Assembly: GCA_951406725.2 (NCBI GenBank)
Contig: OX597816.1
Location: forward strand, 107,508,001-107,572,000
Source of the DNA: Octopus vulgaris
Taxonomy: Eukaryota
Reading direction: 5' to 3'
Length of the DNA stretch: 64,000 nt
The notes under the pieces are model-generated. The model did no database searches, was not told the origin of the DNA, and worked only from the letters and a program-made list of their open reading frames with translations. The first letter of the stretch is position 1. Each line of letters opens with the position of its first letter. The translations under genes were made by a program, and so were the position numbers. Shown piece by piece: positions 34,171-49,998 of the stretch.

Positions 34171-34282
34171 GCATTTGTATTTGGTTGGAACGCTGAGGTT
34201 GTATTGAAAAGAAACTTAAATCATAACATCTCCGCTGGTATAGGCTTGTGTATTGCAATTATTATTGCTGGACAGGTTTCAG
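34171..34282 (+). CDS. Aquaglyceroporin exon (end of TM1, TM2)
   Basis: tttcag|AFVFGWNAEVVLKRNLNHNISAGIGLCIAIIIAGQVS(G)|gtaag, phase 0/1. Matches AQP3 ...AQVVL...LGILIAGQVSG. Confidence 0.9.
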
Positions 34283-34392
34283 GTAAGATAATTCCTGAAT
34301 TATATTGTCAATATTGACCTTGTACCAACATTTGGAATCAATATCCTAATAATTTTTGACCGAAATAACCAGATAAACCCACTACTCTTATA

Positions 34393-34805
34393 CAGGGTGG
34401 TCGCTAGAAAAATGGAAAATTCGTGATGTGACAATTTATATTTTCCCAAAGGAGGTATACAAAGTTTCAAAGTTGCAATAACAGTATTAATTTGATACCT
34501 TGTGATAGTTGAATAAAAGTTCGGTAACACAGTAAAGTTTTTAGTCACTCCCCAAGTCAGATTTTCACTCTTGAGAAGAGCAATAATTTGTCTCTGGAAG
34601 TCTGATAGCTGTTTCCTGCCACCTATTTCTTTCATGATATGGGGGTTCACGCTGAAGCTAATGACGGTGAATGCTTGTTATGATTACGCACTCATTCGAC
34701 AACAGAAACAACGAATTAGAAACCACCAATCACACAGTTTATTGATGATCTAATTAATGCTTGTTAGTTTTGCCTTCCAATTTTCCGCTTTTCTAGCGTC
34801 TTCTG
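34393..34805 (-). mobile_element. Internally deleted Tc1-like element in an aquaporin intron
   Basis: TA|CAGGGTGGTCGCTAGAAAAATGGAAAATT versus AATTTTCCGCTTTTCTAGCGTC. Minus-strand GGRKQLSDFQRQIIALL resembles a Tc1 N-terminal HTH. Confidence 0.6.
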
Positions 34806-34912
34806 CTCCAGAGCAGAAAATCGAAGTGTTATAAAACAATGTAACCCACTGATCAAATTTTTCCCATTATCATGTTAAATATTTCACAATACTTCGTTCA
34901 ATGTATTTGCAG

Positions 34913-35050
34913 GTGGACACATGAATCCAGTTGTTACTTTGAGCTTTTGTCTGATGGGAAAAATCAAATTTAAGAAGCTTCTACCCTACACTCTAGCACA
35001 AACGCTGGGAGCTTTTATTGTTGCCTCACTGCAATACGGAATACTTTATG
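34913..35050 (+). CDS. Aquaglyceroporin exon (loop B with NPV motif, TM3)
   Basis: ttgcag|(G)GHMNPVVTLSFCLMGKIKFKKLLPYTLAQTLGAFIVASLQYGILY|gtaag, phase 1/1. Carries the MIP signature SGGHxNPxVT and AQxLGA. Confidence 0.95.
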
Positions 35051-35384
35051 GTAAGAACAATATATATATATATATATATATATATATATATATATATATA
35101 TATATATATATATATGTATATAATAATAATAAAAATGAATGTGTGTGTGTCCACATATAGGAAGAAAAACTATAGCGGGGATATAAAAACTAAAAGCTAA
35201 TTCTTTTGTAAAATTTCACGACGAAGACAATGGAACTTGTCCTGAGTCTCTAGCGGCTCTCTGAATGGAGCTACTAGCCATTTTCCAATATGTACAAAAT
35301 CACATTTCAAAAATAAATGAGGGATCTAAAGGATATATTCTTTATCGGATTAACATACCACTTTTTTATAGGTTTCAATTTAAA

Positions 35385-46350: not shown

Positions 46351-46649
46351 ACCGGATTCATTCTTGTTGCTTATTTTTTGATTATAATCACCCCGCATAT
46401 TTTTATGGATAACACCATACAAAATTCTGGTGCATCTAAATTAAGTACCATATTCATTTGAATCTAAATTGTTGCTGAACTTATATATATGAAACTAATA
46501 AGCTTTTAAGAATCTGTGATAAGACTGTGCATCATCATTAAGGAACTTTGGAAATCTGTTTGCAACCTATATCTGCCTTTAATGAAATTATCTCCAATAT
46601 TTCATGAGTATAACCTCACCCACTAAGATGTTTGGAGAACTCATATGTA

Positions 46650-46740
46650 TTTTAGCTGATGAGTACGGGACACTTTTATCTGCTGCAATTTTTGCAACTT
46701 GTAATAAAGCCTGTCTTTGTATGAAACAATTGTACTAAAA
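46650..46740 (+). ncRNA. Type I hammerhead ribozyme motif with a long stem II
   Basis: TTTTAG-CTGATGA-GTACGGGACA...TGTCTTTGTAT-GAAA-C-AATT-GTA-CTAAAA, with a 6-bp stem I and palindromic ACAATTGT. Confidence 0.75.
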
Positions 46741-47884
46741 ACTAATCCATTCTTGTTGCTTCTTTCTCGTATATATATATATATATATATATATATATAT
46801 ATATATATATATATATATATATATATATATACACGACGAGCTTCTTTCAGTTTCCGTCTATCAAATCCACTCACAAGGCTTTGATCTACCCGAGATTATT
46901 GTAGAAGACATTTACCCAAGGTGTAATGCAGTAAGACTCTGAGGTATTTTAAAATGTATGCAAGTATTATCCCCACGAGGTCTATCTGAATTTGTTTCAT
47001 GATGTGTGATAGTGAGGCCTTGTTGTATATGCATGGAAAACATAGATACCAGTGTTGTGGTAATATGCCCAATGTAACAACTGCAATCCTAATTGTAAAA
47101 CTAAGGCTTACAATTAAATTTGTGCAATATGTTGGTCATTAGTGGCTTTCCTCGCGTTTACGAGGTTGTGGCCCGCTAATACGAAGGAACATCTTGGTTT
47201 TAGTTGTTTTTGTGCTATATTATTAGTTTTAGATGATGGTTGGATGTGATACATCTTGCGCTCCGTTTTATGAGGTTTTTGTTTATGAATTCTTCTGTTC
47301 AATAGCTGTTATGCATTTAAATCATATCATAAAATTTATGTGCGATTTGTGCATTTTCATTAGGTGTATTCTCTGATGTACTTATATAATATAACGAGTA
47401 CATACATGCATATATATAAATGTATAAAGATATGTGTGTGTGTGTGTGTGTGTGGGCGTGTGTGTGAGTTCATATTCCAAGTATGATGTATGTATTTATT
47501 ACATACCAAGAAGCTGCATTTCATTCAGCAGCGTTCTGTTAAATTGGATCTCATCTTGAATTGCACACACACACACACACACACACACACACACACACAC
47601 ACACACACACACACACACACACACACACACACACACACACACACACACACATTAACGCACGCGTGCTTATCTCCAAATCAGAATTACCCATTCTGTTATT
47701 TTTCAAATTTATGCTGCACCAAAATGTTATCCCCGCTTAAAGACTCATGTTATGGAGAGTGACCACGTAAAGCTCTCTAATTAGCTCAATATATGTATGC
47801 TTATTTGTATATACTTATATGTATATTTGTATATATGTATATATGGCTTGTTGAATAGCTGGATTATGTATATGTGTATGTATA

Positions 47885-48962
47885 CGAGGTGGTGTCAAAA
47901 AGTTCCCGGACTGGTTCTGTAACGCACCAACAGATGACGGCACACAATTGCAAGCGCAATGAGAGGTAGCAGTGACCTTCATTAAGTAATATGCCGAGTG
48001 ACATTACCATGTTTACTTCGAAAATTGTGAAATCTTGATTTAAATTTGGGAAGTCTCCTACAGAGATTTTGAGCATGCTTTAGCGAGCTTACGGCAACAA
48101 GGCAACGAATCGTACCGAATGTTTCGAGTGACACGGGCGATTCAAAAGCGGACAGCAGAGCCGCAGCTCAATTGATAACATGCTTATCATTTTTGTTTTG
48201 TTCAACATCTGCGGTATTGTACATCAAGAATTCATCCCCAAGCACCAGACCGTCAGTCGAGACTTCTACTGCGACGTTTTCAAACGTTTGAGGGAGGACT
48301 TCGACAAAAGAGAGCGGATCTGTGGTGCGCGAAGAATTGGATTCTTCATCGAGCTCTCCTCTCTCGCGAGTTTCTCTCCAAAAACAACATGGTATCGCTT
48401 CCGCACCCGCCCTATTCCCCAAATTTAGCACCCGCGGACTTCCATATCTTCTCCAAGATGAAAATGTAGCTCAAAGGTCGCCAGTTTAACATCGTTATCG
48501 AGATCAAGTACGAATAACAGAAGGTCCTCGACTGGCTTACAGAAAATTTCTTGCAGACCGGATTCCAAAAGTGGCAGGAACACTGGGACCGGAGTATTGC
48601 TGCGCAAGTTGACTATTTCGAAGATGTTAAAACGTAGGTAAATAAATTACCATTTTTTATTAAACACTAGCAGAGATACCCGGCGTTTCTCAGGATTAAA
48701 ATGGCATAGTTTGTATATATATTACAGATATATTGAAACAGGTGATACCGGAAAGTGCAGCATTGACGACAAAACATTTGTGGAGTAAATAATGGACTAA
48801 TTCGACTAAGCGACATGTCATGGAAAATTGGGGATGGGGGTATGTGCATGGTTTTGCTGATCTTAAGAAATGCATAGGTACTACACACGCAGACACACAC
48901 CCAGACGTCTTAGGTTTTATATATATAGATAACTTGTCCAGGAACCGTTTGATACCACCTCA
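47885..48962 (+). mobile_element. Mariner element, internally deleted, with a transposase pseudogene
   Basis: TA|CGAGGTGGTGTCAAAAAGTTCCCGGAC versus GTCCAGGAACCGTTTGATACCACCTCA|TA. Peptides FNICGIVHQEFIPKHQTVSRDFYCDVFKRLRE and HPPYSPNLAPADFHIF. Confidence 0.9.
48667..48929 (-). mobile_element. Non-autonomous Helitron nested inside the mariner, next to its right TIR
   Basis: Minus strand starts TCTATATATATAAAA and ends CCTGAGAAACGCCGGG...CTAG, between A and T. Confidence 0.8.
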
Positions 48963-49783
48963 TATATATATATATATACTTGTAATCATGTGTAAAGTGC
49001 ATTCATATATATAAATGTTTGTATATATATATATATATATATATGTATGCTTCAAGGCGGCCATAAAGCAGAGCCTTTGGATCATCGGATGGATTGCTTT
49101 GAAGTAATAATCCTAATTCACTAGTTCTGAGTTTAAAAAACTCCGAGATCCCTTTCGGCTTTCGTCATTTCTATGTCGATAAATAAAAAGTACCATTTCT
49201 AAACGGCAGTCAATTCTTCTCTTTCCTTCTGTCTTTCTGCCTTTGAGGAAAATCGACTGCCGTTAGGCAAGGAGAAGCACTGTCTCCGGCATGTCGAAAA
49301 TGCCTAAAATACTTGGTATCACAACGACTTCATGGAGAAGTTCAGGGCCTATGACAAGGTATATATGTATGTGCGTGTATATGTTTTTATATATATTACA
49401 TATATGTAATGAATGTGCGTATGTATATATGTTCGTTTTTGTATGTATGCATATATGTATCTGTGTATGTAAATGTCTATGCGTATGTATTCCTATGTGT
49501 GCACGAATGTTTCTATGTATGCTTTTATGTATGTATGCAATATATGTAAGCTTTTACGTATATGCATGCATATGTGTATGGGCATATGTATTTATGTGAG
49601 CATAAGCATATATATATGTATTTATGCATGTATGGATAAGTGCTATGGCAAGAAGATGTGAAGATCATCATTGATAGATTGTAAAGATAATAGTCGTAAT
49701 TTGTCCAATCATATACCTATTTTCTATTTCTTCGACCACTATAAATTGGTTATATATCTTATTACAGTATTCTTCGTTTTCAG

Positions 49784-49998
49784 ATTATAGCTGCTTTTCT
49801 GCTAGTGATTGGCATTCTCGCCATTACTGACACTGATAATATTCAATACAACCCAATTATGTTACCAATCACAGTAGGAATCCTACTCACGGCTATCATA
49901 GCTTCCTTTTCGCTCAACGAATGCGCAATAAATCCTGCCATAGATGTTGCCGGAAGAATTCTGCTTGCAGCAATATCAGGAAACTCAACAGTCTTTAG
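49784..49998 (+). CDS. Aquaglyceroporin exon (TM4, TM5, loop E with NPAID)
   Basis: ttttcag|IIAAFLLVIGILAITDTDNIQYNPIMLPITVGILLTAIIASFSLNECAINPAIDVAGRILLAAISGNSTVF(S/R)|gtatg, phase 0/2. LAITD..N and NPAxD...R are glyceroporin features. Confidence 0.95.

Follow-up and report, generated by a model that had tools for sequence, protein, structure and literature searches.

An arginine-free aquaglyceroporin-like gene in Octopus vulgaris and its octopod relatives

The Locus and Its Transcript

The window, i.e., the whole stretch of 64,000 nucleotides of Octopus vulgaris DNA that we analysed (contig OX597816.1, positions 107,508,001 to 107,572,000), carries four exons of a gene of the MIP/aquaporin family (Table 1). 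Joined, they give an open frame of 192 codons bounded by intact GT-AG sites, as had been read from the sequence in a preliminary description of this DNA. They are exons 2-5 of a gene of seven exons and 284 aa, with an open frame and AG/GT ends; motif scans within the window detected neither a first nor a last exon, and both map outside it. The protein differs from O. sinensis P0001 at 2 positions over 284 aa and is annotated in Octopus as "aquaporin-9-like". Databases already list the sequences discussed here, with names assigned automatically (aquaporin-9-like, aquaporin-8). The splice junctions, which the preliminary description proposed to confirm by RNA reads, were found in contigs from runs X1 and X7 (2/2 RNA-like runs), which come from separate studies with separate organism labels. 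These contigs break at the ends of exon 5 and continue into exons 4 and 6, so that the junctions covered are those of exons 4-5-6.

Table 1. Exons and filter-related codons of the Arg-free gene (window positions unless prefixed G000:C3)
Feature	Position	Strand	Remarks
Exon 1	G000:C3:107505103-107505198		5' of window
Exon 2	34171..34282	+	aa 33-70: TM1 end, loop A, TM2; contains Ala54
Ala54	GCT 34234..34236	+	TM2 filter position (AQP3 F63); HMMER alignment
Exon 3	34913..35050	+	aa 70-116: GGH-M-NPV first half-helix motif, TM3
Asn74-Pro75-Val76	34924..34932	+	first motif (NPV), Asn retained
Exon 4	44202..44314	+	aa 116-153: loop C, TM4 start
Exon 5	49784..49998	+	aa 154-225: TM4, TM5, loop E, second half-helix
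Ile192	ATA 49898..49900	+	TM5 filter position (AQP3 G203); HMMER alignment
Cys200	TGC 49922..49924	+	loop-E filter position LE1 (AQP3 Y212); adjoins one-residue deletion
NPA (203-205)-Ile206-Asp207	49931..49945	+	second motif; Ile replaces filter Arg, Asp retained
Ile206	ATA 49940-49942	+	AQP3 R218 position
Asp207	49943-45	+
Arg211	AGA 49955..49957	+	four residues past Asp207
Exon 6	G000:C3:107574711-874		3' of window
Exon 7	G000:C3:107581798-814		3' of window

Family and Fold

P0001 matches the Pfam MIP family over residues 16-250 with 111.9 bits, for a cut-off of 25. The predicted model (pLDDT 86.7, pTM 0.84) is closest to AQP3, GlpF and AQP7 (Z 34-35, rmsd 1.7-1.9 A, 238-256 residues aligned), with Z 34.8 and 1.9 A over 256 residues for AQP3 8y8n. 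On this model, the protein has the MIP/aquaporin fold, with six helices and two half-helices arranged as an hourglass, and two Asn-capped NPA-type motifs are present (NPV and NPA). The top 16 PDB sequences in the HMMER search are all glyceroporins. Its nearest relatives and the Asp after the second NPA, as judged from sequence, place the protein in the aquaglyceroporin lineage by descent. Indeed, the animal AQP3/7/9/10 and the canonical mollusc W/G/Y/R type are its best sequence and fold matches and likewise carry this Asp, while all four filter residues differ. The canonical signature of aquaglyceroporins, i.e., the filter Arg followed by Asp (PMC4734766), is absent, Ile206-Asp207 standing where Arg-Asp is expected. 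The same genome keeps a canonical W/G/Y/R copy (C22), with which the Arg-free protein shares 31% identity (72/235). The boundaries and phases of exons 2-5 match between the two genes, with sizes of 112/138/113/215 bp in the Arg-free gene vs. 127/138/119/218 bp in C22, exon 3 being 138 bp in both.

Two other divergent molluscan sets were considered. Membership of the Malacoglyceroporins (Mglp) was rejected: the octopus protein is a far better match to glyceroporins than to AQP1/4, and Mglp has been placed within the classical aquaporin subfamily (PMC12771848), in a clade found to be unsupported elsewhere (PMC6796509). Like the Arg-free clade, Aqp3-mol3 and mussel Aqpg2 represent a second line of molluscan glyceroporins that has diverged. 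Sequences from panpulmonates, caudofoveates and cephalopods are said to fall in Aqp3-mol3 (Martinez-Redondo et al., bioRxiv 10.1101/2022.07.25.501387), and Aqpg2 has Gly at TM2 (PMC12771848). The available parts of these sources report no Arg loss, and our comparison with them is by description.

The Selectivity Filter

The HMMER alignment to human AQP3 (chain 9qsx) assigns Ala54, Ile192, Cys200 and Ile206 to F63, G203, Y212 and R218, in agreement with the by-eye alignment of the preliminary description; the position of Cys200 is reckoned backward from the Asn over a one-residue deletion, whose gap lies directly before the Cys. The canonical aromatics of TM2 and loop E and the TM5 Gly are thus replaced by Ala, Cys and Ile. 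The preliminary description was also right that loop E is shorter by one residue (11 residues from TM5 to the second Asn, 12 in 253/278 aligned proteins) and that the filter Arg is almost invariant, since, once the cephalopod Arg-free clade is set aside, 248/257 aligned proteins have it, a count that leaves out 6 proteins of at least 700 aa. The glyceroporin Asp and the downstream Arg, which it had reported as kept, are Asp207 and Arg211; these two residues, His72 and both Asn are invariant in 122/122 aligned rows. By analogy with the D265-R269 bridge in the structure of the trypanosome channel TbAQP2 (PMC11088622), Arg211 is likely the salt-bridge partner of Asp207.

Other positions distinguish the proteins of this clade. 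Within the clade of the window gene (C3), Trp38 in TM1 is invariant (4/4 rows), a site occupied by small residues in relatives, and the next position, 39, reads N, N, D and D against mostly Val in relatives. In Arg-free proteins, the first motif varies between NPV, NPT and NPG. The octopod filter is without aromatic residues as well as without Arg. Summed filter side-chain volumes, a crude proxy, are 531 in octopods, 663 in the orthologue P0003, and 617-655 in canonical proteins.

Relatives and History

Arg-free orthologues, for which the preliminary description proposed to search in other cephalopods, were found in O. sinensis, O. bimaculoides and Argonauta, together with the proteins P0003 and P0018. 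The filter is A/I/C/I in P0001, P0004, P0005 and P0002; V/I/F/L in the P0003 cluster, which retains one aromatic; and A/I/I/L in P0018. A second Arg-free paralogue (C9, on a separate contig; P0135 and P0137) has S/V/P/L. Hence, the "fully aliphatic" filter of the preliminary description holds for the loss of Arg but not for the label, Cys being a thiol and one orthologue keeping Phe. Across these sequences, the conserved trait is the loss of charge, rather than width or a fully aliphatic filter. Nor did the four positions change together, as had been proposed: among gastropod proteins related to these, Lymnaea P0145 already has G and Aplysia P0298 has N in place of the TM2 aromatic, and the loop-E residue is C, F, I or P within the Arg-free clade.

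The window gene and C9 form one clade in IQ-TREE (100/94, 45 rows, bootstrap unsettled) and in FastTree (97, 256 rows). In the IQ-TREE tree, which contains glyceroporins only, this clade groups with proteins of Batillaria, Lymnaea and Aplysia (96/89), so that the gene nests among molluscan glyceroporins when the tree suggested in the preliminary description is built. Both clades stand on long branches, with stem lengths near 1.0 and 0.4 changes per column. The AU test does not reject descent from the canonical cephalopod copy (p-AU 0.09). A FastTree placement beside protist-like long branches was lost under a mixture model, and we reject it as likely long-branch attraction. Word-based, representative-only searches, which are weak evidence, returned no C9-type protein outside Octopus and Argonauta, and the Arg-free clade is established for octopods only. 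In a plausible history, a spare molluscan glyceroporin copy would have lost its Arg and acquired a branched residue at TM5, both a single time; its duplication, still ahead of the Octopus/Argonauta split, would have given the C3 and C9 genes, while the W/G/Y/R copy would have retained the ordinary job.

Conservation of the Gene

The Arg-free genes are not decaying, because their identity between Octopus and Argonauta (191/235, 81%, for C3; 201/237, 85%, for C9) exceeds that of the canonical copy (147/235, 63%), a baseline that is a single pair whose orthology rests on the tree. The preliminary description had judged likewise, and orthologues, spliced contigs and conservation agree with it. In place of its proposed dN/dS check, a test of silent against replacing changes covers exon 5: compared with runs X18/X19, this exon shows 3 replacing and 5 silent changes (pN/pS 0.21, p 0.033), in one comparison of 8 changes whose p rises to 0.08 without a site also variable in X1. 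The long stem branches, and a canonical copy able to cover the ordinary function, speak for relaxed selection on a spare copy, with filter changes that are neutral or mark the onset of decay. We nevertheless hold this to be very improbable: besides the excess of identity and of silent changes, all named orthologues have open frames, the two key positions hold Ile/Leu and Ile/Val in every distinct Arg-free member, and the C-terminal DTKF is kept on its own separate exon. As for an Ile codon created by an assembly error, or reverted to Arg by RNA editing, its probability is close to nil, and nothing was found in its favor. Records from Argonauta and from three Octopus species show the same residue, and codon 49940-42 shows an alternative letter in 0/4 runs, two of them spliced contigs; the AGA that would have spoken against the preliminary description is absent from these runs and from the orthologues. 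Moreover, A-to-G changes of ATA yield only Val or Met, so that A-to-I editing cannot restore Arg, as had been pointed out.

Comparison with TbAQP2 and AQPX

TbAQP2 (Trypanosoma brucei aquaglyceroporin 2), through which drugs enter the sleeping-sickness parasite, had been put forward as the model for this filter; it is the right comparison, and even closer than was said, both proteins keeping the Asp after the lost Arg. This combination has been called unique to the trypanosome channel (PMC4734766). The TbAQP2 filter is I110/V249/L258/L264 with D265, residues taken from papers; octopods have a non-polar filter without Arg with the Asp kept (A/I/C/I and D207). In both, Ile or Leu replaces Arg, a branched aliphatic occupies TM5 (Val in TbAQP2, Ile in octopus), a basic residue lies four past the Asp, both Asn are retained, and the protein arose beside a canonical WGYR paralogue. 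On the other hand, the octopus gene is an animal gene with introns positioned as in its canonical paralogue, its motifs are NPV/NPA instead of NSA/NPS, its TM2 residue is smaller, and its loop E is one residue shorter. TbAQP2 shows 26% identity and ranks 14th by sequence (E 5.6e-21 vs. 2.4e-37 for AQP3), under AQP3, AQP10, AQP7 and GlpF; our trees were built without it. We infer convergence from this low identity and this rank below AQP3. The trypanosomatid AQPX and unorthodox aquaporins also have an aliphatic filter without Arg, but they are without the Asp that the octopus protein keeps and lie outside the glyceroporin branch.

TbAQP2 is the only tested channel of this layout that we found. 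It passes water and glycerol, and in yeast it excluded NH4+, methylammonium and formamidine (PMC4734766), a conclusion on cations that is disputed for pentamidine (PMC7473772). Pentamidine uptake is blocked by L264R, and drug passage also depends on NSA/NPS, being 93.5% lower with NPA/NPA. The natural advantage of the channel to the parasite is stated as unknown (PMC7473772).

Likely Function

With moderate confidence, we favor a passive channel that carries water and solutes without charge, its range shifted from that of the canonical paralogue, with small cations likely excluded. Candidate solutes would be water, glycerol, urea, NH3 and perhaps larger hydrophobic molecules. At the outer constriction, they would pass a greasy wall where backbone carbonyls are the sole bonding partners, as in TbAQP2. 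The central barrier to cations would be maintained by Asn74 and Asn203, and Asp207, tied to Arg211, would offer no free negative charge; some proton leak may occur. Against this reading, the TM5 change of Gly to Ile/Val adds bulk, Trp38 could constrict the entrance, aliphatic-filter AQPX channels let little glycerol or water through (PMC8355241), and the NSA/NPS motifs, on which drug passage in TbAQP2 also depends, are absent. The pore had been called "wide" in the preliminary description; this is weakened by a bulkier Ile at TM5, by a filter volume that is low in octopods but not in P0003, and by the poor glycerol passage of AQPX. The ammonium or small cations that it proposed as substrates are unlikely, because neither NPA Asn is altered and NH4+ was excluded by TbAQP2 in yeast.

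The same bulk could mean that Ile192, Ile206 and Trp38 close the mouth of a narrowed, greasy-gated channel, poor in water and glycerol, which would serve gases, H2O2 or an internal membrane like AQPX and unorthodox aquaporins. We regard this as unlikely: the clade-specific Trp38, the shortened loop E, a P0003 filter volume that is not below canonical (by the crude proxy) and the exclusion of glycerol by AQPX filters speak for it, whereas the solved structures of TbAQP2, which has Val at this point of TM5, are wide (PMC11088622), AQPX is without the Asp, and the octopod volume lies at the lower end of the compared set. Slightly less probable again is that, once Arg is lost, Asp207 and Asn/Asp39 draw in ammonium, protons or organic amines, and that these cross the pore under the membrane potential, as pentamidine does in TbAQP2. 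The shared layout together with the L264R effect, the polar residues at position 39 (pore-facing by helical spacing alone) and the altered first motif are consistent with it, but both Asn are retained, TbAQP2 excluded such ions in yeast, and its D265 is paired with R269, as Arg211 would allow here. That the two-gene subfamily as a whole conducts these cations through the monomer pore, independently of TbAQP2, is improbable; if true, cation passage would be seen for the first time in a natural animal aquaporin, along a pathway that may serve in handling ammonia or in secreting amines.

In the literature searched, from which most subscription journals and supplements were absent, no description of these octopus filters was found. 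An animal lineage that keeps two Arg-free genes under selection beside a canonical copy suggests that cephalopods have a transport function not yet described. The natural series A/I/C/I, V/I/F/L, A/I/I/L, S/V/P/L and W/G/Y/R offers a test of the purpose of the filter Arg: whether an Arg-free filter leaks protons, and which natural solute favors the loss of Arg.

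Structure of the Arg-Free Gene and Its Filter

The arginine-free aquaglyceroporin gene on contig C3 (the C3 gene) is a real, conserved variant of a known channel kind, and apparently an undescribed one. Our literature search found no paper describing the filters of these Arg-free proteins. The in-window exons (Table) join into an open frame, and a search of its own genome placed exon 1 upstream of the window and exon 6 downstream. The complete frame, with a single, terminal stop, codes for 284 aa; the product matches O. sinensis "aquaporin-9-like" P0001 at all but 2 positions, and over residues 21-225 it is 100% identical to P0005, an O. 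vulgaris record missing both ends. Aligned on the human AQP3 chain, the filter residues (TM2, TM5, loop E and Arg position) pair as A54/F63, I192/G203, C200/Y212 and I206/R218. The splice ends, the frame and this alignment bear out the four exons, open frame and A/I/C/I filter of the preliminary description. Ile206 is encoded by ATA (49940-49942), with Asp207 and Arg211 downstream. The C-terminal DTKF is conserved in P0001, P0002, P0003, P0004 and P0018, behind a variable tail. It matches a class I PDZ-binding pattern and suggests that C3-type proteins may be anchored in a set membrane domain.

The AlphaFold2 model (pLDDT 86.7, pTM 0.84, from an alignment of 122 rows) is closest to AQP3, GlpF and AQP7, Trypanosoma brucei TbAQP2 scoring slightly lower (Z 34.8 to 32.0, rmsd 1.7-2.0 Å). 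Every row of that alignment has His72, Asn74, Asn203, Asp207 and Arg211. In all clade members Arg is replaced by Ile/Leu and TM5 Gly by Ile/Val, and the TM2 residue is small. In the C3 clade, moreover, loop A is shorter, loop E is one residue shorter and the first motif is altered. Pore width is not a conserved trait, since the summed filter side-chain volumes, a crude proxy, range from 508 to 663 in three clade members (C3 protein 531, C9 508, P0003 663) versus 617-655 in canonical proteins (TbAQP2 640). In exon 2 (34186-34191, aa 38-39), Trp38 is invariant in the C3 clade and residue 39 is Asn/Asp, in place of the small and aliphatic residues of relatives; Trp38 and residue 39 could substitute for the lost TM2 aromatic or bring polarity to the pore mouth.

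Coordinates of the features (plain positions count within the window; G000, O. vulgaris genome)
Feature	Coordinates	Strand	Remarks
C3 gene, four in-window exons	34171-34282, 34913-35050, 44202-44314, 49784-49998	+	AG and GT flank each
C3 gene, exon 7	G000:C3:107581798-107581814		17 bases; codes C-terminal DTKF
C9 gene, second Arg-free aquaglyceroporin	G000:C9:54318973-54349130 (L040-L043)	-	S/V/P/L, NPALD; proteins P0135, P0137
C22 gene, canonical aquaglyceroporin	G000:C22:636658-656900 (L046-L048)		W/G/Y/R
LINE-type reverse transcriptase remnant	52036-53300	-	intron 5; two overlapping frames; RVT_1 E 6.8e-26
Open stretch matching DUF7083	2222-2701	-	intron 1; E 4.1e-15
Stop-broken stretch, Tc1/mariner transposase-like	about 29300-30100	-	by-eye resemblance
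Short interspersed repeat, several copies	near 18310, 24279, 28949, 46864, 50448		microsatellites often adjoin
Classical-type aquaporin genes, two duplicated pairs	G000:C1:93827171-93969109, C9:53963585-53998426 (L001-L004)		long first exons

Relatives and History

Relatives were collected by word-based searches, cluster look-ups and a profile search of 1.84 billion representatives. Orthologues with the same A/I/C/I filter, for which the preliminary description had proposed a search in other cephalopods, are present in O. sinensis, O. bimaculoides and Argonauta hians as well as in O. vulgaris. The 12-member cluster P0003 carries V/I/F/L (59% identical), and P0018 carries A/I/I/L with NAT as second motif (51% identical). 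The same genome supplies a second Arg-free copy (C9 gene), which goes by "aquaporin-8" or "aquaporin-9" in Octopus annotations, lacking exons 3, 4 and 6 in the O. vulgaris record P0136, and a canonical control (C22 gene). In the latter, sequence resembling a first exon occurs twice, at 636.7 kb and at 644.9 kb (a spacing of about 8 kb); the two similar stretches would be either alternative first exons or the product of a partial duplication.

Among 278 aligned proteins shorter than 700 aa (6 longer ones were dropped), Arg occupies the filter column in 248 of the 257 outside the Arg-free cephalopod clade. Arg loss with a kept Asp is thus rare and not limited to cephalopods: the nine exceptions, some of which may be sequence errors, include Lymnaea P0145 (Lys; G/G/S/K), clingfish Gouania willdenowi aquaporin-9-like P0199 (Thr; I/A/Y/T, 5 records) and P0209 (Ile; G/L/A/I, NLSID), which groups with Aplysia, all three keeping Asp.

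IQ-TREE under a mixture model (45 of 256 rows, bootstrap not settled) recovered C3 plus C9 as a clade (100/94), to which Batillaria P0141 attaches next (98/91), followed by Lymnaea, Aplysia and P0209 (96/89), and placed the canonical octopus and Argonauta pair apart. FastTree on all 256 rows also joined C3 and C9 (97), set beside other long branches, and a topology uniting the Arg-free clade with the canonical octopus-Argonauta pair was not rejected by the AU test (p 0.09). A single Arg loss preceding the C3/C9 duplication would be the simplest reading of these sequences. The preliminary description had all four positions changing together; the filter changed stepwise instead, as the TM2 aromatic is already absent in the gastropod relatives and in mussel Aqpg2 (PMC12771848). 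A preprint reports cephalopod sequences in clade Aqp3-mol3, to which the C3 protein may belong (bioRxiv 10.1101/2022.07.25.501387). A malacoglyceroporin identity was rejected.

Read Evidence and Selection

Four sequencing runs (X1, X7, X18, X19) were aligned to 49690-50140. None shows an alternative letter, and hence an Arg codon, at 49940-49942, and an error in the Ile codon has a negligible probability. In X1 and X7, RNA only by guess and with differing studies and organism labels, one contig apiece spans 49781-50002 intron-free and carries exon 4's 3' end and exon 6's 5' end as its loose ends, showing exons 4-5-6 spliced together. X18 and X19 have 8 exon 5 differences in common, 3 replacing and 5 silent (pN/pS 0.21, binomial p 0.033, a single small comparison; 0.27 and p 0.08 on omitting a site also variable in X1). 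Octopus-Argonauta identity reaches 81% and 85% for the Arg-free genes versus 63% for the canonical gene, which argues against decay, as the preliminary description had held. Decay of the filter is very unlikely, and C3 is almost certainly a working gene under selection.

What the Pore May Pass

The C3 protein is a member of the MIP family and of aquaglyceroporin descent, but does not carry the canonical ar/R filter. By analogy with TbAQP2, which it would resemble in its working, we lean towards a passive pore for neutral solutes, with a shifted range and the central cation barrier retained. The cited papers report that TbAQP2 lost Arg and kept Asp, a combination its authors call unique, and that it passes glycerol and urea and excludes NH4+, methylammonium and formamidine (PMC4734766). 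They also describe a wider, more hydrophobic filter with a D265-R269 bridge by cryo-EM (PMC11088622), rapid water flow in simulations (bioRxiv 10.64898/2026.04.27.720980), and pentamidine passage, abolished by L264R and down 93.5% on restoring NPA/NPA (PMC7473772; see also PMC12803511). Unlike TbAQP2, the C3 protein is without NSA/NPS, and its Arg-free pore is most likely an independent solution. A narrowed pore is a less likely reading, and passage or binding of cations slightly less likely still. That an aliphatic filter makes a channel permeable is no simple rule, since little glycerol passes AQPX channels with such filters (PMC8355241).

Other Features

The DUF7083-matching stretch is probably a retroelement fragment. 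Among the classical-type aquaporin genes, L004 is apparently frameshifted close to its 3' end, relative to L001.
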